Virus record (IMG/VR): IMGVR_UViG_3300025073_000989
Direction: 5' to 3' (one strand)
DNA from: a virus
Taxonomy: Duplodnaviria > Caudoviricetes
Length of the DNA stretch: 64,000 bases
Every line of letters starts with the position of its first letter. Position 1 is the stretch's first letter. Positions 8,030 through 57,936 of the stretch are shown one piece after another. The translations under genes were made by a program, and so were the position numbers. The notes below the pieces were generated by a model. It was not told where the DNA came from. It saw only the letters and a program-made list of their open reading frames with translations, and did not search any database.

Positions 8030-11000
8030 ATGTCTTCAGTACAGATTGATCAAAAATTGAAATTTCTCTGCGAAGGAATCAAAAAACAATTTTTTAGTAA
8101 ATCAAGTGTAGATCTGATCAGTAAAAAGAAAGAAGGAAATCTTAGTATTACTTTTGAAAACAACTCTTTATGGATCAATATTTATGATGGAAAAAATAGC
8201 CACAGCATAGCTATACCAATACCATATTTAGACAAAGATTTACAGCTTTTAGTAAAGAACGATGTAGTACGAGCAACTTGCCCGTATTTTGTAGTAGGAC
8301 TTAACCAAGAGTTAGATTATATGGATCTCCTGTATACGGTTATTTGTGGGGATCCGTCATGTATTATTGAGGAGGATATTTTTCAAAGAACGCCCTTTAT
8401 TCAGCAAATTAGCTATTCTATAGAAAATGGTAACACATCATTTATAGCCCTAAAACTACAAAAAGTTATCAACAATATAGTAAATAATTTACCACTGCAC
8501 GAGGGCTCAATGAAGTCTTGGATCATGAACAAACGGCTCATGTTTATAGATCCAACATTTAACGCTTTGATTAACCCGAAAGACAGACTTTCATATCAAG
8601 TAAGCAAAGCTGAAGCGTTTTTTAATAAAGGATGGACACAAATAGGTCTTCCTGATGGTACAATGGTAGATAAAAATTACATGTTGAAGGTAGATTTAAA
8701 GCGCTTTGTTCCTTTTGGAAACCAGTTTCACAACCCAGCTAGAAATTTATACTCTACATTGGGGATGAATGGCGACGAGCTGCCAATGGTTCGTTCTGAG
8801 TCAATGCAGATCCTTATTGATAAAGGTATAAGTAGAACAGGATGGAATTTGTTTACGGTTTTTTATGATATTCCTGATACATGGGAAGATCAAATAATGG
8901 TAGATAGTTCACATGCAACAAAATTTATAACATATACAAAAAGGTACCAATGCTTTGGCACTGTATTAGTAAAAGAAAACGACGATTTAAAACAAGGACA
9001 ACAACTATCAAAAGCAATAGACGGCAACGGTGAGATATTTGATGAATTAGCCGAAGAGGCACATGTATCTAAAATTAATGAAATACTAGTTAATGTTGGT
9101 GGTGTTCCAGTAAAAGGATTTAATGTTATAGTATCTTATAAACGATATCTAAAAGAGGGTGTAAAAATAACCAACCTTTCGGCAAACAAAGGTGTGATAC
9201 GATTAGGGAAGCTAGGTTTTGCTGTAGACCCAAAAACTGGAGAACAACGAAAAATAGATGTAATTGTAGGACTGTCAGCAGTTAAAAAAAGAAAGAATTA
9301 TGCTCAAATATTTGAAGCACTATTAAATGTTGTAAACCAAGAAAGAGTTACAATAGTAGCCGACGATATTAAAAGTACTCTCGGTGATATCAAAAATCGT
9401 CTATTGGCGGAAGGTTTTCCAGAAGACGGTAGTAGGATGTGTCATACATACGCAGGTAATTTTTCTGCACTATGTGGTACTGTTTTCTGGGGAGTTATCC
9501 ATGATGTAGAGAATACAATATGGGACAAAGATACGACGTTTGGGGTAAATGGTAGAGGTTTAAGGACAACTGGCTTAAAGTTTTCTACAGTTGAGTTTAG
9601 AGCGCTAGAAACACGCTTTGGTAAAGATAATCCAGTACTAGCAGAAGTGTTATCTTATTCCCAAGGAACAACCGATTTGACAAATATGTTGGATGTTCTA
9701 AAAAGTAAACTTAATATAATTAAACCAGAAACACCGTGTTTGACTATAGATAATGTTAGAGAGGTTGATCAAACAACGTCAACTATAGTAAACGGAGATA
9801 TACTTTACGGCACTGTTGTAGATGAAATGTTTTATCCTAATGGTTTTGTACTACAACTGCCCTATATTTTTACAACAGCCTTAAACGGGAACAATAAAGT
9901 TGTATATGAAGGCATAAAAAATACTAATGTAAGTGCCCACAAGAAAATTAGTATAGACAAATTATATATTCCATGTGGAAATTTAAGAAAGAGTTGGCGC
10001 CACGGTACAGCTAAGTATGGGTTAAGCGAGATAGGTTCCGCAGTAAATAGAATAGTAATTACATCAAAAAGGTTAATAAAAGAACCAACCTCTAAAAACA
10101 ACATTACTATGTATTACAGCGCAATATCAAACTACTTTAAGCTAATAAGTAGAATACTTGGCACTAAAAATGGAGAGCTAAATAACTACGGTATGGCTGT
10201 AAGATACCCATATTCTGCAAAAGCAGTTGCAACCTTAAGTACAACTTTACCAAAAAACGTAATAGAAATTAATTCATCAGTAGCAAAAAAATTACAAATA
10301 GAAACAGGAGATGTAGTACTAGTAGAAAGATTTCCATGTTTAGGTTTTATGTCGCTTAGGCCACAAAAAATAAAGGTTACAGAAGACGATAAATGCAGAT
10401 ACACGATACGTGTTAGCGGTAATAGTTTAGGTTCTATGGGGTTAGATTTTGATGGTGATGTTATATACATAGCTGCCTTTCATACAGAAGAAGCAAAAGC
10501 ACTTCTAAATAAAGAATGGAAAAATCCCGACAAAACGTGCTATGATATTATTAAAAAATACAACGTTCAAAAAAGTAACCCTAGATTACAGGAAGTTACT
10601 ATTGACAATATTGATATAAAGGGATTTTCTCCGCTAACTATAGAAGAGCAAACAGGTATAGTAGGAGAACTTGCGGGAGTAAAAGCCTTTACTGGACCGG
10701 TAATAGCCTTTTTATACAATTTAATGAGAATTCTTGAAAATTCTAATATAAATAATAAAAAAAGAACGGCCGCCGGTCTAGAAGAAATGTTTACCATAAT
10801 AGGAGAATCAGTTTTTGATTTAAAGCATGGGATCAAATCCCCACATGACGTGTTTGTAGAAGCAATATGTACAGCAGATATAAATACGTTAGTAGAAAAT
10901 GACTTTGATAGAAGTACTTCTACTATTTTATGTAATTTAATAAAACAAAAAGCAAAAGAACTCGGAGTTGTTGATTTAAAAACTTATCATGAAAGGGCTA

Positions 11001-11338
11001 AAGAAACTGGAGGTACAATAGTTGGTAAAATTGTAAGAGAGCAAAATAAAGTATATTTTGCCTCTAGAGCAATACTAGAAGCAAATAGCTTGTTGGAGCA
11101 CTTAAATAGTCCTATAGTAGACATCCCTAGCAGGATATTAAGTTGGACATTGTCTGGCAAAGCAGAGGAAAGGGACACTGCTCTAGATAAAAAGCGACAG
11201 AAAGCACAAATAGAAGAAATTCAAATTGAACCTGTTAAAGACGCCTGTAATATGTTATGTGCATACATAGAAAAATATCTTAATGGGGAAAAAATAGAAA
11301 ACAAATTTAACTATAAAGAAGCGTTTTTTCACAACTAA
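8030..11338 (+). CDS. Single-chain two-barrel RNA polymerase (fused, minimised beta + beta' homolog)
   Basis: Beta-like GVKITNLSANKGV (two Lys 8 apart), KIDVIV..KRKNYAQIFE and GLKFSTVEFRALE; then beta'-like GTKNGELNNYGMAVRYPYSAKAV, VLVERFPCL and GLDFDGDVIY (DxDGD at 10445-10459). Confidence 0.9.
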   Translation: MSSVQIDQKLKFLCEGIKKQFFSKSSVDLISKKKEGNLSITFENNSLWINIYDGKNSHSIAIPIPYLDKDLQLLVKNDVVRATCPYFVVGLNQELDYMDLLYTVICGDPSCIIEEDIFQRTPFIQQISYSIENGNTSFIALKLQKVINNIVNNLPLHEGSMKSWIMNKRLMFIDPTFNALINPKDRLSYQVSKAEAFFNKGWTQIGLPDGTMVDKNYMLKVDLKRFVPFGNQFHNPARNLYSTLGMNGDELPMVRSESMQILIDKGISRTGWNLFTVFYDIPDTWEDQIMVDSSHATKFITYTKRYQCFGTVLVKENDDLKQGQQLSKAIDGNGEIFDELAEEAHVSKINEILVNVGGVPVKGFNVIVSYKRYLKEGVKITNLSANKGVIRLGKLGFAVDPKTGEQRKIDVIVGLSAVKKRKNYAQIFEALLNVVNQERVTIVADDIKSTLGDIKNRLLAEGFPEDGSRMCHTYAGNFSALCGTVFWGVIHDVENTIWDKDTTFGVNGRGLRTTGLKFSTVEFRALETRFGKDNPVLAEVLSYSQGTTDLTNMLDVLKSKLNIIKPETPCLTIDNVREVDQTTSTIVNGDILYGTVVDEMFYPNGFVLQLPYIFTTALNGNNKVVYEGIKNTNVSAHKKISIDKLYIPCGNLRKSWRHGTAKYGLSEIGSAVNRIVITSKRLIKEPTSKNNITMYYSAISNYFKLISRILGTKNGELNNYGMAVRYPYSAKAVATLSTTLPKNVIEINSSVAKKLQIETGDVVLVERFPCLGFMSLRPQKIKVTEDDKCRYTIRVSGNSLGSMGLDFDGDVIYIAAFHTEEAKALLNKEWKNPDKTCYDIIKKYNVQKSNPRLQEVTIDNIDIKGFSPLTIEEQTGIVGELAGVKAFTGPVIAFLYNLMRILENSNINNKKRTAAGLEEMFTIIGESVFDLKHGIKSPHDVFVEAICTADINTLVENDFDRSTSTILCNLIKQKAKELGVVDLKTYHERAKETGGTIVGKIVREQNKVYFASRAILEANSLLEHLNSPIVDIPSRILSWTLSGKAEERDTALDKKRQKAQIEEIQIEPVKDACNMLCAYIEKYLNGEKIENKFNYKEAFFHN

Positions 11339-11895: not shown

Positions 11896-12291
11896 ATGGA
11901 AAAGAAACAGTATAAAGGAATTACGTTTAACGAGTGTAGTTTTATGGGAAAAGTACTTGGGGCACCAAAGTTTGTTCCGGCAGGCGATTCTGAGTATGTT
12001 TTTATTAACCTCTCTGTTCAACAAAGAGAAATGGACGCAAACCAACAATTTGCTGATATTGAAGTAGTTGTACCGCTATTGGTTATGGAGGCCTCTAAAG
12101 TAGAAGTTGTAAAGAAATACGTACAAGAAGGACGCCAGCTGAAGGTAGATGGTTATTACAAAAGTTGGCAAAACGACGGTCGTGCGGGGCATGCCATATT
12201 TGTAACTAAAATACAACTTGGTGATAGGCCATATGTACCAAAAGAGGAACAACAGGCTGCCTCAGCCATGGCTAACCTTCCACCAATGTAA
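11896..12291 (+). CDS. ssb: Single-stranded DNA-binding protein (OB fold)
   Basis: FNECSFMGKVLGAP, GRQLKVDGYYKSW pattern; start placed at the ATG at 11896 after GGGAG. Confidence 0.65.
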   Translation: MEKKQYKGITFNECSFMGKVLGAPKFVPAGDSEYVFINLSVQQREMDANQQFADIEVVVPLLVMEASKVEVVKKYVQEGRQLKVDGYYKSWQNDGRAGHAIFVTKIQLGDRPYVPKEEQQAASAMANLPPM

Positions 12292-12294: not shown

Positions 12295-12416
12295 ATATAA
12301 CGCCTAAATAAGCCGCCGATATGTAGAGCGGTGGCGAAACTACAAGGAGAATTTGAATGAACAAACTTCGCAACAGAACAGAGCTTCTAGCGGCCGGCTT
12401 GATTTTTTTGTTGGGC
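12295..12416 (-). repeat. Integron attC site A1 (minus polarity)
   Basis: Ends ATATAAC...GTTGGGC on +; arms AAAT-AAGCC-GCCG / CGGC-c-GGCTT-g-ATTT with two unpaired bases on the right arm. Confidence 0.8.
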
Positions 12417-12635
12417 GTTTCGGCCTTGGCTGGGTGCACAGACGCAAAAATGAAACAGTTTACAGCCCTTGGGTCGCCAGGAGAGATTGTTTGTTTTTCT
12501 GGCGGTAAAGAAATTTACAAGGGAATTTCAACCGGGAAAATATCTACAGAACAAGGGAGTGACGGATGGTATTTCCAGGAGCAGACCACCGGAAAACTAA
12601 TCCGTGTTTCTGGCGACTGCCTTATTCGGAACTGA
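12357..12635 (+). CDS. Cassette-borne lipoprotein
   Basis: Signal peptide with lipobox LAGC; AAGGAG RBS and ATG lie inside attC A1. Confidence 0.75.
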   Translation: MNKLRNRTELLAAGLIFLLGVSALAGCTDAKMKQFTALGSPGEIVCFSGGKEIYKGISTGKISTEQGSDGWYFQEQTTGKLIRVSGDCLIRN

Positions 12636-12636
12636 C

Positions 12637-12724
12637 GCCCAACGGTATTTTAACCTGCCGCGCCTATGGCTTGGCAGCAAATGCGACCGCGCTGCTCGCG
12701 GTCAGGTTGAAAATTTTGTTATGA
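12637..12724 (-). repeat. Integron attC site A2 (minus polarity)
   Basis: GCCCAAC (complement of GTTGGGC in A1)...GTTATGA; arms ATTTT-AACCTG-CCGCG / CGCGG-t-CAGGTT-g-AAAAT. Confidence 0.85.
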
Positions 12725-12754
12725 TGCGTAAGTTTTATTCCATTTTTTAAAAAG

Positions 12755-13945
12755 GTGAATTGTATGAAACAAGTAATTTCTACGGAACAGAAGCCTATTA
12801 AGTTGTGGTTGGATGATATTGAAGACGGGGCGCTTGCCCAAGCCAAGAACCTTGCCAACCTTCCTTTTATTTTCAAGCACATTGCTATTATGCCCGACTC
12901 GCATCAAGGCTACGGAATGCCTATTGGCGGGGTCATGGCCACACAGGGCGTTGTTGTCCCGAACGCTGTCGGTGTTGATATCGGATGCGGCATGTGCGCC
13001 CTCAAGACTTCCATTGCTACCCTTGACCAAGCAACGCTGAAAAAAATTATGGGCGGCTCGAAGGAATATAAAGGCGGCATAAGAAGTGCTGTGCCAGTCG
13101 GGTTTTCGCACCATTCTAAAAAACAGGACGAGGGATTGATGCCAAGAATTACAACTGGCTTGCCAATTGTTGAGAAAGAATACAGTTCCGCCTTGAAGCA
13201 GATCGGAACCCTTGGCGGAGGCAACCATTTTATTGAGATACAACAAGGCAATGATGGATTTGTGTGGTTGATGATCCATTCCGGCAGCCGGAATATAGGG
13301 TTTAAAGTGGCGCATCATTATAACGATGTGGCTATTTCTCTGAATGAGCGGTGGCGTTCTGCTGTACCGGCAAACTGGCAACTGGCGTTTTTGCCTTTGG
13401 ATAGCGAAGAAGGGCGAAGTTACTTGGCGGAAATGCAATACTGTGTTGATTTTGCGCTTGCCAGCCGGGGGCTTATGATGGAGTTGGTTAAACGTTCTAT
13501 TGTTGAGGTGATTGCAGATGTTACTTTTGGCGATATCATAAACATTGCCCATAACTACGCCACTATGGAGCACCACTTTGGAACAAACGTGATGATTCAC
13601 CGTAAGGGGGCTACAAAAGCCTACCCTGACCAACTTGGCATTATTCCCGGCAGCCAAGGGACTGCAAGCTACATCGTTCGGGGTAAGGGTGAACCTGAAA
13701 GTTTTATGTCTTGTTCTCATGGTGCCGGTCGCAAGATGGGGCGCAAACAAGCCGAGCGAGAACTTGACCTTAATGCCGAGATTGAAAGGCTTGATTCTAT
13801 GGGCGTTATTCATGCAATCCGATACCAGAAAGATTTAGATGAAGCACCAGGGGCTTATAAAGATATTTCTACCGTGATGAGTAACCAAACTGATTTAGTT
13901 GATATTGCAGTGGAACTAAGGCCACTGGCGGTTATTAAGGGGTAG
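12755..13945 (+). CDS. rtcB: RtcB RNA 2',3'-cyclic phosphate/5'-OH ligase, cassette-borne
   Basis: MPDSHQGYGMPIGG, VGVDIGCG, GTLGGGNHFIE, MIHSGSR, IHRKGAT, SCSHGAGR, DEAPGAYKDI; visibly GC-richer than flanks. Confidence 0.95.
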   Translation: MNCMKQVISTEQKPIKLWLDDIEDGALAQAKNLANLPFIFKHIAIMPDSHQGYGMPIGGVMATQGVVVPNAVGVDIGCGMCALKTSIATLDQATLKKIMGGSKEYKGGIRSAVPVGFSHHSKKQDEGLMPRITTGLPIVEKEYSSALKQIGTLGGGNHFIEIQQGNDGFVWLMIHSGSRNIGFKVAHHYNDVAISLNERWRSAVPANWQLAFLPLDSEEGRSYLAEMQYCVDFALASRGLMMELVKRSIVEVIADVTFGDIINIAHNYATMEHHFGTNVMIHRKGATKAYPDQLGIIPGSQGTASYIVRGKGEPESFMSCSHGAGRKMGRKQAERELDLNAEIERLDSMGVIHAIRYQKDLDEAPGAYKDISTVMSNQTDLVDIAVELRPLAVIKG

Positions 13946-13947
13946 CA

Positions 13948-14034
13948 TCATAACGCCAAAATAAGCTGTGCCGCCTATAGCGGTGCAGCAAAAACACCGG
14001 ATTTCCCGGCATCAGCTTAATTTTATTGTTATGC
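13948..14034 (-). repeat. Integron attC site A3 (minus polarity)
   Basis: TCATAAC (complement of GTTATGA in A2)...GTTATGC; arms AAAAT-AAGCTG-TGCCG / CGGCA-t-CAGCTT-a-ATTTT. Confidence 0.85.
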
Positions 14035-14357
14035 CATTCGTGGCGAGGAATTTCCTAATGGTTAAAATGAAAATAATTGACATCGATGGTGGCATCGGCA
14101 TGGAGTTCCCGAATGGTGTGGACTGCCTCAAGCAACATGGATTCGGGATGTTTCTTGAGTCCTGGGCGGATGGGGAATTGGTGATTACGCCAGAGGCAAA
14201 AAGGGCAATCCTCGAACACGGCAAGGAAATGAGTTTGGGAGGTATCGCGTTTTTCGATCAAAAAATGATCGGATTCATGCAGAACGAGATTCCTTTCGAT
14301 GGCATATCGGTTAACGGGAAATCCAAGGATTGGATTCGGGAGTTACCAGAGGCATAA
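13968..14357 (+). CDS. Cassette-borne hypothetical protein (start uncertain: 13968, 14031 or 14058)
   Basis: ORF fills the space between A3 and A4; its stop TAA is part of GGCATAA, the core-site complement. Confidence 0.6.
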   Translation: MPPIAVQQKHRISRHQLNFIVMPFVARNFLMVKMKIIDIDGGIGMEFPNGVDCLKQHGFGMFLESWADGELVITPEAKRAILEHGKEMSLGGIAFFDQKMIGFMQNEIPFDGISVNGKSKDWIRELPEA

Positions 14358-14435
14358 TATCGCTGGCGTAACCAGCCTGTCGCACATGAAAGGAGATTGA
14401 CACCATGACAACGCCTATTGACGTAATTGTTAGCT
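14352..14435 (-). repeat. Degenerate attC site A4
   Basis: GCATAAT (one mismatch to the GCATAAC expected from A3)...GTTAGCT; partial arms GGCGT/ACGCC and TGTC/GACA. Confidence 0.5.
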
Positions 14436-14638
14436 GGGTGCGCTACCAAGCGCGAATGTTTAAGCACCGACCACGGATGTTGTGGAACCGCGCATTCGTG
14501 CGGAAAAATGAGTTTCACAACAGCCTCGATATGGATGTCCGGTCGATGTACGACATGAACACTGAAGACCGGCAGCGATACATTGCCGATTTGATACGCC
14601 GCAGGAACATTGCACATGAGCGTGACATTGATAGCTAA
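14405..14638 (+). CDS. Cassette-borne hypothetical protein
   Basis: AAGGAG RBS and ATG inside A4; ends at AGCTAAC (14633-14639), the complement of GTTAGCT. Confidence 0.65.
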   Translation: MTTPIDVIVSWVRYQARMFKHRPRMLWNRAFVRKNEFHNSLDMDVRSMYDMNTEDRQRYIADLIRRRNIAHERDIDS

Positions 14639-14642
14639 CACA

Positions 14643-14698
14643 ATATGATATGAAATTTAACAGTGTCTGTATAGCACTAGTTAAGTTTCATATCATAT
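14643..14698. other. Long AT-rich hairpin at the array boundary
   Basis: ATATGATATGAAA-t-TTAAC-AGTG...CACT-a-GTTAA-g-TTTCATATCATAT. Confidence 0.7.
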
Positions 14699-17182: not shown

Positions 17183-18325
17183 ATGAAATTTAAGATACAA
17201 ATATCAGACAAAATGACACATGAGGACCAAAATGCTAAAATATTAAGAATACCGCGAGATTTAAGATCAGAACTTGGAATAAGTATTGGTGAAACTATAG
17301 ATCTTGGTACAAAAGATGGTAGTTTAATCAAATTAAACATAGGTCAAGCCTTTATAGAAGATAAAGATACAAACAGTAGAGTAGCTTTTGTTTCGAAACT
17401 TATTTTTGATGTATTGGAATTTATAGACAACGAAGAAAAAAACCCAATACCTCTAGTTAATGATATCACTTTAGGGGCTGATCCTGAATATTTTTTACTA
17501 AAAAAACAAAATCATAACATAGTAACAGCAAATAGCTTTTTTGGTAAATATGGTGCGATTGGCTATGATGGTATACTAGCAGAAATAAGACCAGAACCAC
17601 ATACATGTGAGGAAGGATTAACAAACAATATAAAAGGGTTACTTCAGAAAGCAAAAAACATAATAAGTACACATAAGACTCTAGGACAAGATACTACATT
17701 AGTGGCTAAATCTCATCATAGGGGAGTAGTTGCTGGATTTCATCTACATTATGGTATTATTTCTCCAGCATTACTAGCTCCAAATTACAACTATAATGTA
17801 TTAAATGTAATAATAGAACAAATAGTTAGAGTGTTAGATTACTATTTGGGAATTCCAAGTATAATACCTGAAGGGATTGAAGACTCGTCAAGAAGATGTG
17901 CCCCATTTACTTCTTATGGTAAAGCCGGAGACTATAGAGTAGATCATAGAACTTTAGAGTATAGAGTTCCAGGAGGACATCTTTTAAGGCATCCAAATCT
18001 AACTAAAGGTTTAATAGGTTTAGGGGCAGCTGTAATAGAAGATATTATAAGTAGAATAAAAGTATGTTCAGACAATTTTGATTTATCAAAAATATCCAAT
18101 ATCAACGAAAAAGATCTATATCCAAACATTCTTAGTAAGCAAGAATTAATTCAGACAATAGGTACTCCTGATACAAAAAAAGCAAAAGACAAATTAGACA
18201 GTATCTACAAGGATGTATCAAGTATGGTAAGTTACGGAAAAAGGAAAGAAACTATAGACTTGTTTTTCTCAGTCTTAGAAGAAAAATATAGTTGTTATAT
18301 TGAAGACAACTGGCAACTAAAATAG
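17183..18325 (+). CDS. phiEco32-like COOH-NH2 ligase, copy 2, with extra N-terminal domain
   Basis: TLGADPEYFL, DGILAEIRP, AGFHLHYG, YGKAGDYR, LEYRVPGG. Confidence 0.8.
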   Translation: MKFKIQISDKMTHEDQNAKILRIPRDLRSELGISIGETIDLGTKDGSLIKLNIGQAFIEDKDTNSRVAFVSKLIFDVLEFIDNEEKNPIPLVNDITLGADPEYFLLKKQNHNIVTANSFFGKYGAIGYDGILAEIRPEPHTCEEGLTNNIKGLLQKAKNIISTHKTLGQDTTLVAKSHHRGVVAGFHLHYGIISPALLAPNYNYNVLNVIIEQIVRVLDYYLGIPSIIPEGIEDSSRRCAPFTSYGKAGDYRVDHRTLEYRVPGGHLLRHPNLTKGLIGLGAAVIEDIISRIKVCSDNFDLSKISNINEKDLYPNILSKQELIQTIGTPDTKKAKDKLDSIYKDVSSMVSYGKRKETIDLFFSVLEEKYSCYIEDNWQLK

Positions 18326-18351
18326 TAACTATTAATAGCAGGAGTAATTTA

Positions 18352-20028
18352 ATGCGGAATAGTAAAGAAAGGTGGTTATTCTTTAAACATCCATCTAAAC
18401 CGGCAATTTCTCACGAAGAAACCTTTTACTGGAAAAACAACCTAAAGAAAATACTAAAAGTAGGAATGGAATTCGAGTTTAATCTACCCAATAAAAATGG
18501 TAGTTGTAAAGGAGACAATGAGGCATGTCCATGCAATTATTTGAATATTTCTAATTGCTGGACGCAGTGTGCAAAACAAGAAACATGCAGTATATCGAAA
18601 AATTTTAATTTTTGTCACAATGTAACTCTGGACTGTAGTAAAACAGACTGTAAAAAATGCAACAAATTTAAGTTAAGTTGTCCGAATATTAGCTGCTCTC
18701 TTTTCGAAAGCGCTTGTTCTTCGTGCCCTCTTTTTAAACAGGATTGTTATACATGTGAGCATAAATATGATCCAGAGAAAAACCCAGATCTTATTAGAAC
18801 CTCTATAGAGAATGAACTAAAGCCCAGTAACAGTTATGGTGTAATAAGTGAATCTGGAGTACATAGTGTTGTCAAAGATGGAAGTTTATTGGGCGGAAAA
18901 GGGATGGAGATAATTACCATAGGCCGTAGAATAGATTATTGGGAATTTTTCAAAATGGCTAAAACCATTATCGACAAAGCAGTAGCCAAAGGTGCTTATG
19001 TAAATGAAAGATGTAGTATACATATGCATGTTCTTGCAAGCTACTATTCTAGGCTTTTTGAAAACCAAGAGCAGCACGGAATTCCAAAGAAAATTAACGA
19101 ACTAGAAAAACCCATGCCAGAAATAATTTTAGCCAACTTTCATCAGTTATGCAGAAGATATCAAAATGCTATGACTTGGATGATGATGGGACTAGATGAC
19201 CCCAAAAAAATGACAAGATGGGAGAAGTTCAGGGTATCTATACTAGAAATTTCCCCCGTACTTAGTTCCATGGAACACGTTAAAGAGGCAGTTCGAGTAC
19301 ATTCCGGCGGAAATAAGTACGGTTGGGTCAATTATAACTATACAGAATTATTACCTAGTGGAAATGTCAATAGATTTCATGTCGAAATGCGAGCACTCGA
19401 TGGTATTCTTTGTCCTAGTGTTATTGCTGCAATAGCCTGCCTTTACTATGCATTGGCAATAAAAGCTGTAGAAATATCAAAGTATGGATTAGTAGAGGTT
19501 GGGAGTAAAGACTGGATGGCTACAGCATTAGAAGCAAAACAAGCCATTCTTAATAATATGAAGGGCTACCAAGACGGTGATAGGTGGGCAGATACTAGAA
19601 AAACCCTTAATTACAGAGAGTTATTTGTAGAAGAATCTTTAGATTTAATAAGGCAACTAAAACATATACTGGTAGAAATAGGCCCAGCCTATCAAGTACT
19701 GGAACAATTAGCAGAAAGACCTATTGCTATAAGGAGATGTGCAGGAGAAAGCTGGGCATCGATTGAGGAGACTTTGGCTGTTTCAACTAGACAAGAAAAC
19801 AATTTAGAGAGTCTTCTTTATGAGTATATAGACCTAAGATATATAGCAGAATGTAATGATATTGAAGAGTGGATATCGTCGGCTCTAGAAATCATCGTTG
19901 AAGAAAACAAAATTGAACACCGTTCAATAGAGGAGTTAAGAGAAGAAATAAAACAACAGATAAAAGGAAAACAAGATGACGGTGAAATTATATGGTCAAA
20001 GAAGTTAGGAACTATAGTAGTGGTGTGA
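18352..20028 (+). CDS. Putative amidoligase (Amidoligase_2-like) with Cys-rich insertion
   Basis: VGMEFEF, VKDGSL..GMEIIT, CSIHMHV, KYGWVNY, VEMRALDG; 16 Cys in about 90 residues after the first motif. Confidence 0.75.
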   Translation: MRNSKERWLFFKHPSKPAISHEETFYWKNNLKKILKVGMEFEFNLPNKNGSCKGDNEACPCNYLNISNCWTQCAKQETCSISKNFNFCHNVTLDCSKTDCKKCNKFKLSCPNISCSLFESACSSCPLFKQDCYTCEHKYDPEKNPDLIRTSIENELKPSNSYGVISESGVHSVVKDGSLLGGKGMEIITIGRRIDYWEFFKMAKTIIDKAVAKGAYVNERCSIHMHVLASYYSRLFENQEQHGIPKKINELEKPMPEIILANFHQLCRRYQNAMTWMMMGLDDPKKMTRWEKFRVSILEISPVLSSMEHVKEAVRVHSGGNKYGWVNYNYTELLPSGNVNRFHVEMRALDGILCPSVIAAIACLYYALAIKAVEISKYGLVEVGSKDWMATALEAKQAILNNMKGYQDGDRWADTRKTLNYRELFVEESLDLIRQLKHILVEIGPAYQVLEQLAERPIAIRRCAGESWASIEETLAVSTRQENNLESLLYEYIDLRYIAECNDIEEWISSALEIIVEENKIEHRSIEELREEIKQQIKGKQDDGEIIWSKKLGTIVVV

Positions 20029-20038
20029 GGTTTAATTA

Positions 20039-20851
20039 ATGTGCGCAATTTTTGGAATAGGTCTAACCAGTACTCATAGATTTAGAAATAAATTGTTTTT
20101 TAAAAAATTACTAAACAATTTAATGCTAGAATCGGAATTTAGGGGTATGGACGCCACTGGTCTAGCTTTTACAACAGAGAGTAAAATAGTAGTAATAAAA
20201 CATAACTACCGCGCCAATCGATTTCAAGAACTACCAAGAGTACAAAAAGCGATCGATAGTTATGGTGACATATCAAAAATAGGTGGTCCAGATAATTTAT
20301 ATTCTATTATAGGTCATTGTAGATTTAAAACAAAAGGGATTCCAGAAAATAATAAAAATAATCACCCCATCATAGCCAATGAAGTAGTCGGAGTACATAA
20401 CGGTGTAATATCAAATGACGATATATTATTTAGTAACTATTCTAATTTACCATATATTGAAAGGGCTGGGCAAGTAGATAGTGAGATTATTTTTAGACTA
20501 ATAGATTTTTTTATAAATAAAGGTTTAACGACAGAACAAGCAATTAAAGAGACTACTGCCAGAATTGCTGGGTCTTTTGCTTGTGCTTTAGTAACAAGCT
20601 GGGCACATGAAAATCTATATTTGTTTAAGAATGACAACCCAATAGCATTATCCTACTTTCCAAAAGTAAAGATTTTTGTTTTTGCCTCGGCTAATGCCAT
20701 TATTAAAAAAGCAACAAATGAACTCTTCTTAGGAGAAGAACGAGAGGTAGAAATACCACCGCAACACCAGATAGTTATAAACTTAACTGATGGGATAACA
20801 AAACTATCGCTACTAGGTTTAAATGTATTAAATACTAATACTAATAGGTAA
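20039..20851 (+). CDS. Class II (Ntn) glutamine amidotransferase, copy 1
   Basis: N-terminal MCAIFG, RGMDATG, GHCR, NNHP, GVHNGVI, VDSE. Confidence 0.85.
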   Translation: MCAIFGIGLTSTHRFRNKLFFKKLLNNLMLESEFRGMDATGLAFTTESKIVVIKHNYRANRFQELPRVQKAIDSYGDISKIGGPDNLYSIIGHCRFKTKGIPENNKNNHPIIANEVVGVHNGVISNDDILFSNYSNLPYIERAGQVDSEIIFRLIDFFINKGLTTEQAIKETTARIAGSFACALVTSWAHENLYLFKNDNPIALSYFPKVKIFVFASANAIIKKATNELFLGEEREVEIPPQHQIVINLTDGITKLSLLGLNVLNTNTNR

Positions 20852-20860
20852 ATTAGAATT

Positions 20861-21664
20861 ATGAATAGAAATCTATTATATAGAATTAAAAAAATATTAT
20901 ATGGTGGTAATCCGTATGATAAGCTTATGGTAGCAAACTTAAAGACGTCTTATAGCAGTGACCATGATTTTGTAATTCCAATAGGTACTCCTTGCTTATT
21001 AAGCAAGCATATATTTCATAGCGACAGTAAAATAGTAGAAGTAATGATAAAATATCCATTCCTTAAGTATTTAAGTTTTGATACTACTGTACTAATTCGA
21101 AAAGAAAATCTTATTCCAACAAAAAATAATTTTCCAAATGAACATACAATTATTTCAGAGAAAGATTTTTGTAGCGCAAAAAGATTTGATGATTTAAGAT
21201 TACTAGTAGATACCTACGGTGCTGTAACTATAGTTTTTGATACTATACCAAAAGGGGACCCATTGGCTGTTGTAGAAAGTCTAGTAAACAAATTTTACTA
21301 TAAAACTTGTGTAGGACATAGTATAGATTCTTCCGCAGAAGGAAGTACAAATATTTTTATAGATATTGTTAAGATAGAAAATGTAATTCCCATAATAAAA
21401 CCTAATAGAAATAATGGATTGTTTATATCAGTATACACTTGTGATGTACAAGAAAATATGTATAATGATTATGTAGTCTATAAAAATTATATAAATTTAA
21501 TAGTAAGCGATTATTTAGATAATGTATTTGTTTTAGATGGTTCCTTTATAAGAAGTATAAATTTAGGAATAGAAGATAAACTAATTTTTACTCTTAGGCA
21601 AGTATTCAAAAACATTTTAATAAAAAACAAGCAAAAAATTAAACAAACAAATAAGGAGAACTAA
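20861..21664 (+). CDS. Hypothetical protein within the ligase cluster
   Basis: 267 aa ORF, operonic. Confidence 0.55.
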   Translation: MNRNLLYRIKKILYGGNPYDKLMVANLKTSYSSDHDFVIPIGTPCLLSKHIFHSDSKIVEVMIKYPFLKYLSFDTTVLIRKENLIPTKNNFPNEHTIISEKDFCSAKRFDDLRLLVDTYGAVTIVFDTIPKGDPLAVVESLVNKFYYKTCVGHSIDSSAEGSTNIFIDIVKIENVIPIIKPNRNNGLFISVYTCDVQENMYNDYVVYKNYINLIVSDYLDNVFVLDGSFIRSINLGIEDKLIFTLRQVFKNILIKNKQKIKQTNKEN

Positions 21665-21667
21665 CGT

Positions 21668-23395
21668 ATGTGTGGTGTTGTTGGATTAATAGCTTTCACA
21701 GAAACACCGAAACAGGAAGAGGCTATTAGACAAGAAGCTATGATATTTTTACTAACAGAAATTCTTCAGCAAACAATAACTAGAGGTTCAGACGCTACCG
21801 GAGTAGCATCCTTATTTAGAGACGGCCAGTACTTTGGTCAAAAAATGGGAATATCTGCTATAGAGTTTATAGCTAGATTTGGAGGAAAGAACGAAGATTA
21901 TGAGGGATTCTTAAGGTCCTGGAGAAAACACGGAGCTCCAGCTACATGTTCAATTGGTCATTGTAGAAAGAGCTCTGTTGGAAATTCTACAAATAACGCC
22001 AATAACCATCCAATAAAAGTAGGAGAAGTTTTGGGAATACACAATGGCACTCTTACAAATCATAACACTATATTTAAGAATTTTGGTTGTAAGAGGGACG
22101 GTACTGTTGACAGTGAGGCCATATTTAGGCTGCTTCACTTCTTTTCACAAAACGGCACAAACCCATTTACTTTAGATATGGTACAAGAAGTAACTGCTAG
22201 ATTAGAGGGATCTTATTCTGTACTAGCATTTAGTGGTAATAACCCATTTCAAGTAGTGGCGTTTAGGGATTCAAGGCCCATGGAGTTTGCCCTAATAAAG
22301 CCACTTAAACTTGTAGTAGTAGCCTCAGAAAAAGATTTTATAAAAAAATCCCTTTTTAAAATGAATAAGGAAACGCTACTATACGGTAATAAAAGTAACT
22401 TTCCAAGACTTAATGCTAAGAGTATTGATTTTTTTAGTCTTCCTGACGATTCAATTGCAATTTTTAATTTAACAAAAAAAGTAGGGGAAGACACTCAGAT
22501 AGAAGAGTTGTATGATTTTGAGCGGATTAAAAAGACAAATAAAATTTGGAGAGCTGGATATAATTCGTACCCGGCTAAGACAGTAAACGAAGTTAATCCT
22601 ACCGCCCATCAAACTACGCCTCAAACAAATAATTTACCGACACCTGTCCAAGCTAAAGCAGTATTCATATTAGAAAATACTCAGCCTGCGGGTATTGGTA
22701 GAATTTATAACAAAGTCTTGAAGAAATACGTTGCAGCTTCGCCAGCTGTAGATATAACCACACCTATCAGAAATGTAAAAGTTAGTGCTTCTGAAGATAA
22801 AAGTAAACCTGAAATTATAGAAATTGAAGCTATCGATGTAGATGAAAGTGTAGATATAAACACTACAGCTAACGAAGAGGCTTTAAATACTGTAGAAGTT
22901 GTAATGGATGTAGACCCAGAAGCAATCGAAGCAGCAAACTTAGCTGTAAAAAGCTTAAAAAAGTATGAAAATGAAGAAGAATTATTAAATGATCTAGAAA
23001 TGACTAAAGATCAAGTAATAGTTCTAAAAGACCTACCAATACACTCTTTAGCAAATAAAGTAAGAAAAGCAGCATTCAAAGTTGGAGTTCATGAGGGCTA
23101 CGTATTAGGAAAGAATAAGTCGGACCCTGACTCAACAAATAAAAAATTAGAAAATGAAAAGTACATAAGGATATTAAAAACTATTTCTGGAATAATGGCT
23201 ATGCTTATCGAATCCACCAATGTATCTGCTATTGATTCCTCAACGATGGAACGTGTAGTTACAAAAGCATTCTCCGATGGCGAGGAAATAAGTAGTGATG
23301 CTATAGGTAGTTTATTTTCAATTGGTGATATGCGCAAACATGTTGTATTTAGACAAATAAGAGATATGGTTCAGTGCAAAGAACACAGGAGATAA
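21668..23395 (+). CDS. Class II (Ntn) glutamine amidotransferase, copy 2, with long C-terminal extension
   Basis: MCGVVG, RGSDATG, GHCR, NNHP, GIHNGTL, VDSE. Confidence 0.85.
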   Translation: MCGVVGLIAFTETPKQEEAIRQEAMIFLLTEILQQTITRGSDATGVASLFRDGQYFGQKMGISAIEFIARFGGKNEDYEGFLRSWRKHGAPATCSIGHCRKSSVGNSTNNANNHPIKVGEVLGIHNGTLTNHNTIFKNFGCKRDGTVDSEAIFRLLHFFSQNGTNPFTLDMVQEVTARLEGSYSVLAFSGNNPFQVVAFRDSRPMEFALIKPLKLVVVASEKDFIKKSLFKMNKETLLYGNKSNFPRLNAKSIDFFSLPDDSIAIFNLTKKVGEDTQIEELYDFERIKKTNKIWRAGYNSYPAKTVNEVNPTAHQTTPQTNNLPTPVQAKAVFILENTQPAGIGRIYNKVLKKYVAASPAVDITTPIRNVKVSASEDKSKPEIIEIEAIDVDESVDINTTANEEALNTVEVVMDVDPEAIEAANLAVKSLKKYENEEELLNDLEMTKDQVIVLKDLPIHSLANKVRKAAFKVGVHEGYVLGKNKSDPDSTNKKLENEKYIRILKTISGIMAMLIESTNVSAIDSSTMERVVTKAFSDGEEISSDAIGSLFSIGDMRKHVVFRQIRDMVQCKEHRR

Positions 23396-23401
23396 TTTTA
23401 T

Positions 23402-24709
23402 ATGCGTAAAAAACTTATTTTGGTAGTTTCTAAAAAAATGAATTCTGTTGGAAAAGAGAGAAACGAAAGCAACCTAATACGCATGACAGCAAATACTCGC
23501 CAGCATATGGGGTACAGTAACGATAAAGTAGAGGTTTGGCTATCTAGTAGTACCCAAGAAAGAATAGCTAGTACCTTATTATTAGATATAAACAGAGCCT
23601 ACAAAGATGACATCAAAAAACTCAATGAATTAGTGGCTGATGGAAAACTTTTACCTGAGGATATAGTTAGGGTAGGCTTTGTCACTGAAGATATATACCA
23701 AACCATAGTAGGTAAAAACAAAGCAGTAGATAGTAATATTTGGATATCAGATCGCATAGAAGATACTGTTATAGGTGCTGATCCTGAATTTATGCTGTTT
23801 GATAAAAACGGAAAGGTTGTTAGAGCCGACAAAATAGTAGGTTTTACAAAAATAGGTAATCTTGGACATGATGGGGCTATAGCTGAATTAAGACCTAATC
23901 CAGCTATGACTCCAATGGAACTAGCAAGCAATATACATAAAATACTTTCAGATAAAAATTTAACTAGTTCAATAGAACAATATGATTGGAGAGGAATGTG
24001 TTACTTCAAAGACCAAGACAGAGATTATACCGTCGGTGGTCACATTCACATAGGAAGTCCAATACAGATCGCAAAATTACCACCAGACAAACGAGAAGCA
24101 TTCTTTAAGGTTCTAAATAAAATACTAGATGAACTTTTGGCTATTCCTATGACACGGTTAGACGGGCAAAACGGTAAAATAAGAAGAACTACTGGTATTT
24201 TTGGTAAATATGGATATTTTGGCGAAATGCGTCAATGTAATGGACGACTAGAACATAGAACACTTAGTGGTATGTGGCTATGTCATCCAGAAATAACTAA
24301 AATGGTAATTGGAACAGCAAAATTAATTATCGATGAAGTATTTAGATTAATCTCAGAAAAGAAATTTAATATCAATTATATGTCTGTTCCAGACAAATAC
24401 AAATCAATAAATGTATTTACAAGTGATTTTGACGGGTGGAAGGATATAGAATTAGCCAGAGATATGGGATGCATTAGGCAATCTTCAGTGATGCGGTCTT
24501 TATTAAATGAAGCAGAACCACAAAAAGTAAATAAGGATTTTCTTACCAAATGGTATGCAACACTAAAGACATTCTCTAGTTATAGAGAAAATAGTATATT
24601 TTTAGATGGTTTGTTTGAATTACTTAAGATCCCACTAAAAAACTTAAAAGGAGTAGAAACAAATTTAAAAAAGACTTGGTTAGAAGGAAAACCAATATTT
24701 ATAAAGTAG
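23402..24709 (+). CDS. phiEco32-like COOH-NH2 ligase, copy 3, with extra N-terminal domain
   Basis: IGADPEFML, DGAIAELRP, GGHIHIG, YGYFGEMR, LEHRTLSG. Confidence 0.8.
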   Translation: MRKKLILVVSKKMNSVGKERNESNLIRMTANTRQHMGYSNDKVEVWLSSSTQERIASTLLLDINRAYKDDIKKLNELVADGKLLPEDIVRVGFVTEDIYQTIVGKNKAVDSNIWISDRIEDTVIGADPEFMLFDKNGKVVRADKIVGFTKIGNLGHDGAIAELRPNPAMTPMELASNIHKILSDKNLTSSIEQYDWRGMCYFKDQDRDYTVGGHIHIGSPIQIAKLPPDKREAFFKVLNKILDELLAIPMTRLDGQNGKIRRTTGIFGKYGYFGEMRQCNGRLEHRTLSGMWLCHPEITKMVIGTAKLIIDEVFRLISEKKFNINYMSVPDKYKSINVFTSDFDGWKDIELARDMGCIRQSSVMRSLLNEAEPQKVNKDFLTKWYATLKTFSSYRENSIFLDGLFELLKIPLKNLKGVETNLKKTWLEGKPIFIK

Positions 24710-24747
24710 TATTTAATAATAACTTAAACAATTAAGGAGAAAAGAAC

Positions 24748-25821
24748 ATGAACAAACAAACAGCAATTTTCTATAGTGGTGCCACTGACGTTACTGGTAA
24801 GGCTTTAGTGGAGGCATTAGAAGTTAATGGTTGTAGTAGTAAGCCTACAGGTGTAAAACTGGTCATTGGTTGGGGCGCAAAGGCAGAGGGACAAGTTGCT
24901 TTTGGTGGCGACGTAAAAGTATTAAACCATCCAGAAAGAATTCGTGATAATAGGAATAAAGTTAAAACACTGCATACTCTTAAAAAAAGTAACGTCCCTG
25001 TAGCAAGTTTTACTGAAGCTGCTACCATTAACAATGCTTTAGCAAATGGAACGTTAACTTTACCGGTAATCGGTAGAACTAACTTTCATCAAGGCGGAAA
25101 GGGTTTTTGGCTCTGCTTAACAAAAAATCACATAACCAATGCCATTAATGAAGGTGCTCAGTATTTCCAAAACTATTTAGATATGACAGATGAGTATAGA
25201 ATACATGTCTTTGGTGGAGAAGTTATTTATGCCCAAAAGAAAATCAAACGAGATAATATGTCCGATGCCTTTGAAGAGCAACATGCGGAAAAAATTATAA
25301 ATTCCGCCGAAAAGTCCGGAAAAAAAGTTGATAAAGATACGTTGACCTATACGTTAGAACAGGTAGGAAAACGTTTACAACCACAAGCAGACATGATTAT
25401 TAGATCCAATACTCGTGGTTGGAAATTTGTATCAGTTACTACAAATAAACTGAGTAAAGCCCTAGCAGAAGTAGCCATTGCAGCAGTTAAGGCTGTAGGT
25501 CTAGACTTCGGTGCCGTAGACTGCTGTATTACAGAACAAGGGCCTTATATTATCGAAATAAACTCGGGACCAGGATTAGAAAAAACTGCTTTTGAAAAAT
25601 ATGTAGCATGCTTTAAGAAAGTAATTTCAGATACTTTTACTGAAAAGCCAAAAAACACCAAATCACCGGAACCAGAAACACTACAATTTAAAAGTGCAAA
25701 GAAAGCTGAAGTAAGCAATCTGGTAACTAAGACTAAGTTAATGCTGGAAATGGCAGAAAGTGCGGATGAAGTAGAAGCGGCAGCATTAGAAAAGGTGTTT
25801 GCCAAAATGTTTAATAAATAA
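24748..25821 (+). CDS. ATP-grasp ligase (RimK/YheCD-like), copy 1
   Basis: LPVIGR..HQGGKGF, EYRIHV, GLDFGAVD, IIEINSGPG. Confidence 0.85.
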   Translation: MNKQTAIFYSGATDVTGKALVEALEVNGCSSKPTGVKLVIGWGAKAEGQVAFGGDVKVLNHPERIRDNRNKVKTLHTLKKSNVPVASFTEAATINNALANGTLTLPVIGRTNFHQGGKGFWLCLTKNHITNAINEGAQYFQNYLDMTDEYRIHVFGGEVIYAQKKIKRDNMSDAFEEQHAEKIINSAEKSGKKVDKDTLTYTLEQVGKRLQPQADMIIRSNTRGWKFVSVTTNKLSKALAEVAIAAVKAVGLDFGAVDCCITEQGPYIIEINSGPGLEKTAFEKYVACFKKVISDTFTEKPKNTKSPEPETLQFKSAKKAEVSNLVTKTKLMLEMAESADEVEAAALEKVFAKMFNK

Positions 25822-34393: not shown

Positions 34394-35680
34394 ATGTATA
34401 AAGCTATAGTTTGTAGTATAAAGACAATGCAGCACCCAAATGCCATCAACATCCAGCTAGGTTTAGCCGGTAACTACCAAGTAGTAATTGGAAAAAATGT
34501 AGTCGATGGTGAGTTAGGTGTTTATTTTGGATCCGATGGGCAATTAAGTGAAGCTTTTGCGTTAGCAAATGATTTAGTAGAGCGTGTTGATGAGAATGGT
34601 AAAAGGGCTGGCGGCTACTTTGGAAAAACAAGGAGAGTAAAAGCTCAGCACTTTAGAGGAGAAAAATCAGAAGGATTTTGGTGTCCTATTTCATATTTTG
34701 CTTTTACTGGTTATGATCTTACTACTTTAAAAGAAGGCGACCAGTTTGATTCCCTTAATGATGTTCCTATCTGTAATAAATATTTTACGTCGGCGACAAT
34801 TCGTGCTATGGGCAATAAGGCTGGTAAACTGAGAAAGAAAAATCCATATTTTCTAGAACACACCGAAACTAAACAACTTAAGCATGAAATTAGACACATT
34901 CCAGTCGGAGTGCAGCTGTCAATAAGTGAAAAAGTACATGGAACCAGTCAACGTAGTGCAAATGTTCCGGACGAAAAAGAAATAAAGTTAAATACTTTTC
35001 AACGAATTTGTAGATTTCTGGCAGGAGAAGGTTTTTCTGACACACGGATTGAATCCAAGTTTGGTACTTTTCTAGGTACTAGAAAATGTGTTTTAAAAAG
35101 CTTGGATCATCCGTCATATTATGAAAACGAAACTTTTCGTGTAAACGCTGCTCGGCCATTTGAAGGCAAACTTCGCAAATGGGAGGAGATTTTTTATGAG
35201 GTAGTTGGTTTTACAACCACTGGTAAAGAAATAATGACTCCACAAGCCACAGAGAAGCTCAAGGATAAACGATTGAGTAAACAGTATGGCTCCCATATGG
35301 TTTATAAGTATGGCTGCTTACAGGGCACGTGTGACGTTTATGTATATCGTATAGCAATAATTAATGGTGATGGTATTGCGTTTGATTTACCTCTTGAGCA
35401 AGTAAAAGAAAGATGCAAAGAACTTGGGGTTAAATATGTCCCTGAATTATATGAACAGTTTATCTACGACGGCGATTCAGAAAAGCTACTCAACTTTGTA
35501 ACCCCACTTATGGAAGGCTCAAGTACGATAGACCAATCCCACATAAGAGAAGGCTGTGTGGTAAGGGTAGAACACTCAGGCGGAGTAGATTTTTATAAAG
35601 CCAAATCACATACTTTCGGTTTATTAGAGGGTTATGCTAAGGAAGACGAAAGCTTCGTAGACACTGAGGAGATAGCATAA
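34394..35680 (+). CDS. ATP-dependent RNA ligase, DRB0094/Rnl2-like, with N-terminal OB-like domain
   Basis: HPNAINIQLG..VVIG N-terminus; motif I SEKVHGTS; IFYEVVG; REGCVVR; FYKAKS. Confidence 0.75.
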   Translation: MYKAIVCSIKTMQHPNAINIQLGLAGNYQVVIGKNVVDGELGVYFGSDGQLSEAFALANDLVERVDENGKRAGGYFGKTRRVKAQHFRGEKSEGFWCPISYFAFTGYDLTTLKEGDQFDSLNDVPICNKYFTSATIRAMGNKAGKLRKKNPYFLEHTETKQLKHEIRHIPVGVQLSISEKVHGTSQRSANVPDEKEIKLNTFQRICRFLAGEGFSDTRIESKFGTFLGTRKCVLKSLDHPSYYENETFRVNAARPFEGKLRKWEEIFYEVVGFTTTGKEIMTPQATEKLKDKRLSKQYGSHMVYKYGCLQGTCDVYVYRIAIINGDGIAFDLPLEQVKERCKELGVKYVPELYEQFIYDGDSEKLLNFVTPLMEGSSTIDQSHIREGCVVRVEHSGGVDFYKAKSHTFGLLEGYAKEDESFVDTEEIA

Positions 35681-39301: not shown

Positions 39302-39307
39302 ACTAAC

Positions 39308-39328
39308 GCTTACCGATAGACGGTGAGT
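39308..39328 (+). promoter_or_regulatory. Leader hairpin with ATAGA loop (before nadV)
   Basis: GCTTACCG-ATAGA-CGGTGAGT, 8-bp stem with two G-U pairs. Confidence 0.55.
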
Positions 39329-39360
39329 AATTATTAACATCATTATGGAGGATTTCCACT

Positions 39361-41040: not shown

Positions 41041-41751
41041 ATGAAGATAATAAGTAAGTTTAAAGATTATTATGATTCTATAGCTTTTTCCCAAACACCA
41101 GTATGGGAAAGAAAAACAACAGAAATACTGTTGGATGAAACAAAAAAACTTACTATTAACAAAGAACAAACTATATGGCTTCAAAAAACTCTGCAAGAAC
41201 TACCAAAACCTAGAATAAGTAGTACTAATAATTTATATAAACCTAATTTTTTTATGTATAAAATAGTAGGGTTTTGTGGTGTATTAATTCCCATTTTCCT
41301 TATCTTCAAAGAAAACTGTATTAGACCCACAGCTTATATAGATATTGATGAATTTAAAAAAATGCACAGCCATTTAGACAATAGAGTATCTTGTTTGTTT
41401 GGTAAAAAATTTGAAAAAGAAACAGTAGACGCCTGGAAAATCGAATTTAATGCTACAGCAAAATTAAACGATATCTTCCTAAAACTACAAACACCCATCT
41501 TTATACTTGAACATACTAATATTCGGCACATTATACTTACAACTAACCCAAAACTAGCTAATATTAATTTTCAAAGAATTATTAATCCTTATCAAACATA
41601 TCAACAAATAGAAATGTATCTTTTAAATGAACTTGCCACGGGCTATCAAAAAACACCAGAGTTCTCAGATGAAATAAAAAGAGATATGCATGGTTTTAAT
41701 GAATGGTCATTTAAAAAAAGAGGAATAATCAGTACAGGAGGAATAAAGTGA
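41041..41751 (+). CDS. Hypothetical phage protein
   Basis: 236 aa ORF starting MKIISKFKDYYD. Confidence 0.6.
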   Translation: MKIISKFKDYYDSIAFSQTPVWERKTTEILLDETKKLTINKEQTIWLQKTLQELPKPRISSTNNLYKPNFFMYKIVGFCGVLIPIFLIFKENCIRPTAYIDIDEFKKMHSHLDNRVSCLFGKKFEKETVDAWKIEFNATAKLNDIFLKLQTPIFILEHTNIRHIILTTNPKLANINFQRIINPYQTYQQIEMYLLNELATGYQKTPEFSDEIKRDMHGFNEWSFKKRGIISTGGIK

Positions 41752-56908: not shown

Positions 56909-56956
56909 CTTCAACCAATACATCAACCTGACAAGCAGGTTATGTTTCTGTTGGGC
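56909..56956 (+). repeat. Short attC-like site B1 (plus polarity)
   Basis: CTTCAAC..ACAT-c-AACCTG-acaag-CAGGTT-ATGT..GTTGGGC; 48 bp, short for an attC. Confidence 0.6.
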
Positions 56957-57933: not shown

Positions 57934-57936
57934 CAA

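Follow-up and report, generated by a model that had tools for sequence, protein, structure and literature searches.

The DNA analysed here is a 64,000-nucleotide stretch (the window) from an uncultured phage (Duplodnaviria; Caudoviricetes) recorded in IMG/VR as IMGVR_UViG_3300025073_000989. Positions 12301-14638 of the window probably represent a cluster of attC sites without an integrase (CALIN), made of four integron cassettes that an integrase acting in trans inserted at a bare G|TT sequence (the bar marks the crossover) before a terminator. Integrons have mainly been described as systems by which bacteria capture genes, and recent work has found many anti-phage defences among their cassettes. 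The inserted DNA measures 2,338 bp, has its attC polarity on the minus strand and is delimited by G|TT cores at both ends. Its GC content is 47.3%, compared with 32.9% and 32.5% in the 10-kb flanks and 34.5% in the whole window, in agreement with the GC-richer island of 2.3 kb described in the initial annotation of the sequence. The island (array A) contains four genes, all on the plus strand, which encode a lipoprotein, the RNA ligase RtcB and two open reading frames (ORFs) of 99 and 77 aa, with three intact attC sites and one decayed site between them.

An attC site of ~55-140 bp carries the core sequences R'' (...AAC) and R' (GTT...) at its ends, and its hairpin has an unpaired central spacer and two extrahelical bases ~6 bp apart on the R''/L'' arm that set the polarity of the site. 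Three minus-strand sites, A1 (12295-12416, 122 bp), A2 (12637-12724, 88 bp) and A3 (13948-14034, 87 bp), were detected by a structural scan and by two covariance models, R1 and R2, and by their sequence are structurally canonical integron attC sites. Palindromes of these lengths, together with a degenerate one, had been annotated initially; their coordinates have been corrected by up to 2 nt. Each intact site reads NNNNAAC...GTTNNNN with spacers of 3-4 nt and has two single-base bulges on the minus-strand 5' arm (C/G, C/A and T/A in A1, A2 and A3, spaced 5, 6 and 7 bp, respectively), confirming the two unpaired bases noticed before. A2 has the textbook extrahelical C and A, and the 5-bp and 7-bp spacings of A1 and A3 are the best parse of the scanner. 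The cores of A1 are R'' GCCCAAC and R' G|TTATAT, the last six bases of which are phage DNA, and on the opposite strand its variable loop includes the beginning of the lipoprotein gene, with the ribosome-binding site (RBS), ATG and codons for the signal peptide. A3 has a stable predicted fold (z = -3.3 and -4.2). The degenerate site A4 (14352-14435, minus strand) has kept its cores (R'' AGCTAAC; R' ATTATGC, with the G lost), from which it is identified. Its stems are eroded, it has no stable fold (z = 0.06), and R1 gives a partial match of 30 nt with E = 2.9. The start of the 77-aa ORF falls inside A4.

The strict form of the scan required NNNNAAC, a spacer of 2-6 nt, a stem, a bulge, a stem of 5-7 bp, a bulge, a stem of at least 3 bp and a loop, followed by a complementary arm without bulges, a spacer and GTTNNNN. 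Scanning of both strands of the 64 kb returned only A1-A3 on the minus strand and, on the plus strand, the three sites B2-B4 of a second array, and 30 second-order Markov shuffles of the window yielded 0 sites. The chromosomal integron of Aliivibrio sifiae, whose IntI scores 380.7 bits on TIGR02249 against a cut-off of 265, served as a positive control. The adjacent 20 kb contain nine strict sites, all on the strand pointing away from intI, and their geometry is like that of A1-A3 (a spacer of 3-4 nt, a stem of 4-5 bp, C, 6 bp, A). The Salinivibrio integron region gave no strict attC matches and was thus left out of model training.

The two covariance models are home-made. R2 was trained on 13 Aliivibrio attCs alone, and its top six matches in the window are A3, B4, B1, A2, A1 and B3, i.e. 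six of the eight attC sites, with exact ends, on the right strand and with E-values of 0.0011-0.096 (A3 0.0011, A2 0.017, A1 0.031); the next match is noise starting from E = 0.9. The broader model R1 adds three gammaproteobacterial attC-like sites (L093, L104 and L106) and gives E-values of 1.3e-6 for A3, 1.4e-5 for A1 and 0.0025 for A2, with all seven intact sites of both arrays between 1.3e-6 and 0.14. The recognition of A1-A3 by both models backs the initial assignment of integron-type attC cassettes to a phage genome. Searching genome contigs with the attC-arm pattern AACGCCWAAATAAGCYG gave matches that are nearly all due to chance (15 fixed bases in 596 Gb), and genuine attC-like sites were present only in L093, L104 and L106. 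Applied to viral contigs, the pattern led to the loci L125 and L130. An IntI above the curated cut-off is encoded in the source genomes of L104 and L093, and none was found in the incomplete metagenome-assembled genome of L106.

Palindromes between imported genes could also be ordinary terminators or belong to another repeated palindromic family. A T-rich stretch does follow each hairpin on the coding strand, and an Rfam scan of the window gave no match, although Rfam has no attC family. However, the palindromes agree with real attCs in their bulges, bulge spacing, AAC/GTT cores and unpaired spacer, and R2, trained on an unrelated bacterial integron, finds the same sites with the right strand and ends. 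A simple terminator scan does not flag the palindromes, and the chaining of their cores across the genes, described below, is a specific footprint of integrase crossover. Terminators or unrelated repeats are thus a very improbable explanation.

Because the integron crossover occurs at G|TT, each R' owes its final six bases to the neighbouring cassette. Read on the plus strand, the pairs of cores that face each other across a gene are GTTGGGC/GCCCAAC (gene 1), GTTATGA/TCATAAC (rtcB), GTTATGC/GCATAA(T) (gene 3) and GTTAGCT/AGCTAAC (gene 4). Their complementarity is exact at 16 of 16 variable positions and at all four junctions, as had been pointed out initially, with a chance of ~4^-16 if the positions are independent. 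No such complementarity exists between the two cores of a single site. Array B and the Aliivibrio array obey the same chaining rule. Judged from the core sequences, the cassettes are assembled by the integron crossover rule. The Aliivibrio control also provides a standard for polarity: the top strand, with the extra bases on the 5' arm, is the one directed away from intI, and in 10 of 12 cassettes it carries the longest ORF in the sense orientation. Applied to A1-A3, this criterion makes the minus strand the top strand, and therefore all four genes are antisense to their attC. Viewed along the top strand, each cassette ends with its own attC.

Along the minus strand the order is the hairpin downstream of the island, TGT-G|TTAGCT, cassettes 4, 3, 2 and 1, A1, G|TTATAT and the end of an ssb-like gene. 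The entry core G|TTAGCT (14633-14639, minus strand) consists of a phage-derived G (the complement of C14639) and of TTAGCT, the start of cassette 4, and is complementary to R'' of A4. At the other end, the outer half-core TTATAT is AT-rich and phage-like in composition. Both outer junctions lie exactly at the G|TT crossover, and the jump in GC content coincides with both. Thus, the cores and crossover positions at the two ends define the inserted DNA as 12301-14638. Removal of the insert in silico leaves the ssb-like stop codon followed by 9 nt, C, ACA, a hairpin with a 19-bp stem and a T-run. The target is a bare GTT (minus strand 5'-TGTG|TTATAT-3') without attC or attI features. The AT-rich hairpin with its T-run (14643-14698, plus strand) is an inverted repeat of 95% complementarity (fold z = -6.2), and probably represents the native phage terminator of the ssb-like gene, which has been displaced 2.3 kb downstream. 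Insertion of cassettes by the integron integrase at genomic 5'-GWT-3' sites (attG) has been described, and small CALINs have been proposed to arise via such genome-site insertions (preprint 10.1101/2022.09.11.507474); the attG work is cited as Loot et al. 2024 in PMC12614218.

Two related loci, L155 and L156, were found via their helicases (59% and 54% identical, respectively). Both keep the order of a fused RNA polymerase gene ... putative ssb, hairpin, next gene and helicase, and neither shows a GC island or an attC match. The last phage gene before the insert (11896-12291, plus strand, 131 aa) has a counterpart at the equivalent position in both relatives. The initial annotation had placed the island right after ssb; the position is correct, and the gene name derives from NCBIfam SSB matches below threshold (E = 0.03-0.045), so that ssb-like is the appropriate label. 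As read from these comparisons, the cassettes are inserted precisely at a GTT in a phage otherwise without them. Further relatives were not found by a megablast of 12 kb around the island against the INPHARED phages, by a helicase-based search for related loci in IMG/VR or by a search of IMG/VR with an exact 39-mer of the ssb-like gene, and the helicase protein has only matches of <30% identity among cultured phages.

The sharp jump in GC content could reflect an assembly chimera in which host or other DNA was joined to the phage, and one Logan contig ends inside A2. However, the left junction is spanned by contig L151 and the right junction by L152, L153 and L163; these contigs come from three samples (SRR3989314, SRR2090167 and ERZ27254751) and two assemblers, and all of them match the window at 100% identity. 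Exact copies of the ssb-like protein, of RtcB and of the 141-aa protein downstream are each present on 24 contigs, most of them 50-276 kb long, and the contig sets of the ssb-like protein and RtcB have matching size distributions. Since independent assemblies are identical over both junctions, the island is not a chimera, and the possibility of a chimeric fragment that had been raised with the initial annotation can be given next to no weight. The contig break inside A2 was also considered as a cassette polymorphism and rejected, since two Logan unitigs merely overlap there.

The second array, array B (56909-58987), lies on the plus strand within a block transcribed from the minus strand. Its sites are B1 (56909-56956), recognized by R1 and R2; B2 (57548-57640), found by the strict scan; and B3 (58277-58366) and B4 (58900-58987), found by the strict scan and by R2. 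B2, B3 and B4 all have C/A bulges. The cores chain exactly (GTTGGGC/GCCCAAC, GTTAGCA/TGCTAAC and GTTATCT/AGATAAC), and the three cassettes have a phage-like GC content of 31-34%, unlike those of array A. A gene for an N6_N4 methylase is located two genes away from array B and is not part of any of its cassettes. A TnpB-type gene (55305-56561, minus strand; OrfB_IS605, 3e-25, with a Cas12f1-like TNB domain) adjoins the array.

The two arrays bear on whether an integrase acted on the phage DNA at all. The block in array A could be a piece of a bacterial or phage cassette array that was acquired whole by illegitimate or homologous recombination. The similar GC contents of the four cassettes (46-50%) fit one donor, in which the cores could already have become chained, and an integrase is missing from the window; moreover, illegitimate recombination near terminators bearing GTTRRRY motifs has been raised for phage arrays (Qi et al. 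2023, PMC9892861). However, both ends of the block are at G|TT to the base with phage sequence as the outer half-core, and random breakage would rarely do so twice. Homology was not found between the phage flanks and other arrays, and array B, which has the opposite polarity and another base composition, speaks for a site-specific process that took place more than once. Uptake of the block without an integron integrase acting on the phage DNA is thus considered unlikely. The initial annotation had further proposed sequential insertion by IntI. The cassette footprint and the junctions at the crossover agree with the action of IntI, whereas insertion in the phage may or may not have been sequential: the cores inside the block could have become chained in a donor array, from which all four cassettes were then transferred as one multi-cassette circle.

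Site-specific insertion requires a source of the integrase. A hidden Markov model (HMM) built from eight IntI/Xer proteins gave nothing better than E = 0.68 against all ORFs of the window, and a Pfam scan of 30 window ORFs found no tyrosine recombinase, in line with the initial statement that the window lacks an integrase; these searches cover 64 kb of a phage genome of at least 276 kb. The 141-aa gene following the hairpin shows DUF2924/DUF4357 matches below threshold and no tyrosine-recombinase match. There is no intI, attI or Pc beside array A, and its entry side is a bare GTT next to an AT-rich hairpin, so that the array is not a complete integron; with three intact attCs within 1.8 kb and no tyrosine recombinase in the window, it is a CALIN. 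The phage may nevertheless encode its own integron integrase elsewhere, the arrays then being parts of a phage-borne integron. In keeping with this, most of the genome lies beyond the inspected 64 kb, integron integrase genes occur in some phages (Qi et al., PMC9892861), and the presence of two arrays in the same genome suggests that it met an integrase more than once. However, neither array is adjoined by an attI-intI module, the window encodes no tyrosine recombinase, and two contigs of other phages that carry the same attC family (G003 and G004) are also without IntI. An integrase of the phage's own is therefore improbable.

In the preferred explanation, insertion by an integrase in trans, the enzyme would most probably have come from the host cell. 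It would have acted in an attG-type, non-classical manner at TGTG|TTATAT, between the ssb-like stop codon and the terminator hairpin, and the cassettes may have entered singly or together, on one multi-cassette circle. Their source would be a GC-richer pool, with an RtcB of the Desulfobulbaceae type and an attC family common to environmental phages and gammaproteobacterial genomes, at least two of which have integrases. The inserted genes are co-directional with the upstream phage genes and lie upstream of the terminator, and are thus predicted to be transcribed by read-through as an extension of the operon. Since A4 has decayed, cassettes 3 and 4 are now fused. A1-A3 are intact and should remain recombinable given an integrase.

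The gene of cassette 1 (12357-12635, plus strand, AAGGAG RBS) encodes a predicted lipoprotein of 92 aa with the lipobox LAGC and has no family match in Pfam, PHROGs or NCBIfam; the lipoprotein may alter the cell surface. The gene of cassette 2 (12764-13945, plus strand) is rtcB, encoding a 3'-phosphate/5'-OH RNA ligase. The protein matches PF01139 over its full length (360.9 bits against a cut-off of 27; Pfam E = 1.5e-107) and the tRNA splicing ligase family of PHROGs (1.4e-116). Going by the chemistry known for this family, RtcB would reseal tRNAs or other RNAs that defensive ribonucleases of the host have cleaved. A separate native RNA ligase (PF09414, 2.4e-7) is encoded at 34394-35677, and therefore the cassette RtcB adds a second RNA-sealing chemistry; the two enzymes hint at a theme of RNA repair. 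Cassette 3 contains the 99-aa ORF (14058-14357, plus strand, with an alternative ATG at 14067), which is called as a gene in independent assemblies, and cassette 4 contains the 77-aa ORF (14405-14638, plus strand). Neither of these ORFs obtained a function from Pfam, PHROGs, NCBIfam or Atlas. An alternative gene call over cassette 4, preferred in some assemblies, is a 127-aa minus-strand ORF (14258-14641), which starts in phage DNA, spans the decayed A4 and has an SprT-like match below threshold (E = 0.009).

The relatives of RtcB at 70-79% identity are from Desulfobulbaceae and Candidatus (Ca.) Electrothrix, where the gene is chromosomal, and those at 82-88% identity are on metagenomic contigs, of which L148 and L164 are phage-like and carry rtcB as an ordinary gene. 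Ca. Electrothrix was rejected as the cassette donor, since the two nearby rtcB genes of E. aarhusensis are in an ordinary chromosomal context and are not cassettes. The closest relatives of RtcB were likewise rejected as cassettes: in L164 (82% identical) a plain terminator follows rtcB, in L149 and L150 the gene is in a defence island or an integrative and conjugative element, and none has an attC match. As a side observation, L163, which belongs to the present jumbo phage, and P0002, a phage-like sequence of 21 kb with an RtcB 84% identical, are in neighbouring ENA accessions (ERZ27254751 and ERZ27256875), and the two phages may therefore share a habitat.

The attC family of array A recurs as cassettes in the two IMG/VR contigs G003 and G004 (50-55% GC). 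Both are true phages that encode a portal, a large terminase and DnaB, have no other genes in common with the present phage and also carry their genes antisense to attC. In G003, an A1 homologue with a lipoprotein gene is followed by another attC and a DNA methyltransferase cassette. Comparison of window positions 12298-12438 with positions 11091-11231 of the G003 locus L130 showed 89% identity over A1 and the start of the lipoprotein gene (RBS, ATG and signal peptide, as far as the lipobox). The similarity stops abruptly after the lipobox, and the mature lipoproteins are unrelated. By its sequence, the A1 stretch thus looks like a reusable module of an attC plus a secretion signal. In G004, an rtcB gene whose product is only 39% identical to RtcB of the present phage is followed by an attC 78% identical to A3, and the cores chain likewise. 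A second segment, 65 nt long, consists of half an attC plus an N-terminus and is 97% identical between L148 (7973-8037) and G004 (41641-41704, equal to 3758-3821 of L125), where it forms half of a 124-nt attC-like site. It starts exactly at ...AAC|GTTTTAGC and holds an RBS, an ATG and ~8 codons (MIEM.ETP). The segment precedes different genes in L148 and G004, with different cassettes upstream, and its presence on different genes indicates that attC-plus-start modules are reused.

The recurrence of the same attC-plus-N-terminus modules in unrelated phages on different gene bodies raises the tentative idea, which we regard as somewhat doubtful, that phages hold a cassette pool of their own with a layout suited to phage use, in which the gene is antisense and the RBS, start and first codons lie inside the attC. 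If so, a cassette that a host integrase places at a GTT just before a terminator would extend a phage operon and be expressed immediately. Integron recombination would then be a regular route of gene exchange between phages, e.g. for an anti-defence rtcB, and not an occasional accident.

Several points weigh against insertion by an integrase in trans. Recombination of the attCs is deduced from their sequence, and the attC models are our own and not those of IntegronFinder. R1 is partly circular because its three added sites were fished with a pattern from A1 and A3, and R2 is non-circular but gives weaker E-values. The antisense orientation of the genes relative to attC is atypical of classical arrays, and the 64 kb inspected of the genome contain no integrase. 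The GC content of the phage (31-33%) does not fit that of the cassette pool. The island-free relatives are distant (54-59% helicase identity), so that the 'empty site' is a reconstruction and not an observation. All assemblies with the exact ssb-like protein also have the island and show no sign of ongoing turnover. Thus, of the presence and absence of cassettes that the initial annotation had looked to in related phages, the absence is borne out by L155 and L156, and variation among the assemblies is not.

Other features of the window concern the biology of the phage beyond the arrays. A single ORF of 1,102 aa (8030-11338), with weak matches to Rpb2 domain 6 and Rpb1 domain 2 (beta/beta' fused), is conserved in L155 and L156. 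A set of NAD-salvage genes (38249-40737 and 51582-52541) encodes a fusion of an NMN adenylyltransferase-like domain with Nudix, a nicotinamide phosphoribosyltransferase (3.6e-63) and a PRPP synthetase. Several phiEco32-like COOH-NH2 ligase, glutamine amidotransferase, peptidase C26 and RimK-like ATP-grasp genes are located at 193-1899 and 17183-25818; this cluster, which is also conserved in the relatives, suggests a peptide- or amide-ligation pathway.

Array A provides unusually clean sequence evidence for a giant uncultured phage that drew on the bacterial cassette system. Because its cargo includes an RNA-repair ligase with the potential to counter ribonuclease defences of the host, the same recombination machinery may supply both sides of the conflict between phages and their hosts. 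A1-A3 and TGTG|TTATAT are concrete substrates for asking whether integrases act on phage DNA during infection.

Compared with the classical or sedentary chromosomal integrons (the Aliivibrio/Vibrio superintegron), array A has the same attC architecture, core chaining and cassette sizes. However, there is no intI, attI or Pc in the window, the cassettes number four, the replicon is a phage and the genes run against the attC polarity. The attG insertions of Loot et al. 2024 are similar in that the island also lies at a bare G|TT fitting 5'-GWT-3', with no attI or attC on the target side. They differ in that they were shown in bacterial chromosomes with IntI1-3, whereas the target here is a phage and the event is deduced from the sequence. 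The RtcB ligases of phages (PHROG 1075) include the present protein, which matches phrog_1075, and its homologues in L148 and L164 (82-84% identical), but both here and in G004 the gene takes the form of an attC cassette.

The closest precedent is the set of 17 phage CALINs, in which IntI1 recombined five of six tested phage attCs and one CALIN lies beside a terminator with GTTRRRY motifs (Qi et al. 2023, PMC9892861). Since phage-borne CALINs have been reported there, array A adds to a known kind of array. As in those virulent or uncharacterised phages, the attC cassettes here have no integrase nearby; DNA methyltransferases are among the cargo of those arrays, and here a methyltransferase cassette is present in G003 and a methylase gene near array B. 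The present case differs in concerning an uncultured jumbo phage of at least 276 kb for which island-free relatives are available. It adds two arrays that are on opposite strands and differ in composition, an attG-type entry resolved to the base, rtcB as cargo and the antisense layout of the genes in three unrelated phages, a point that is not discussed in PMC9892861.

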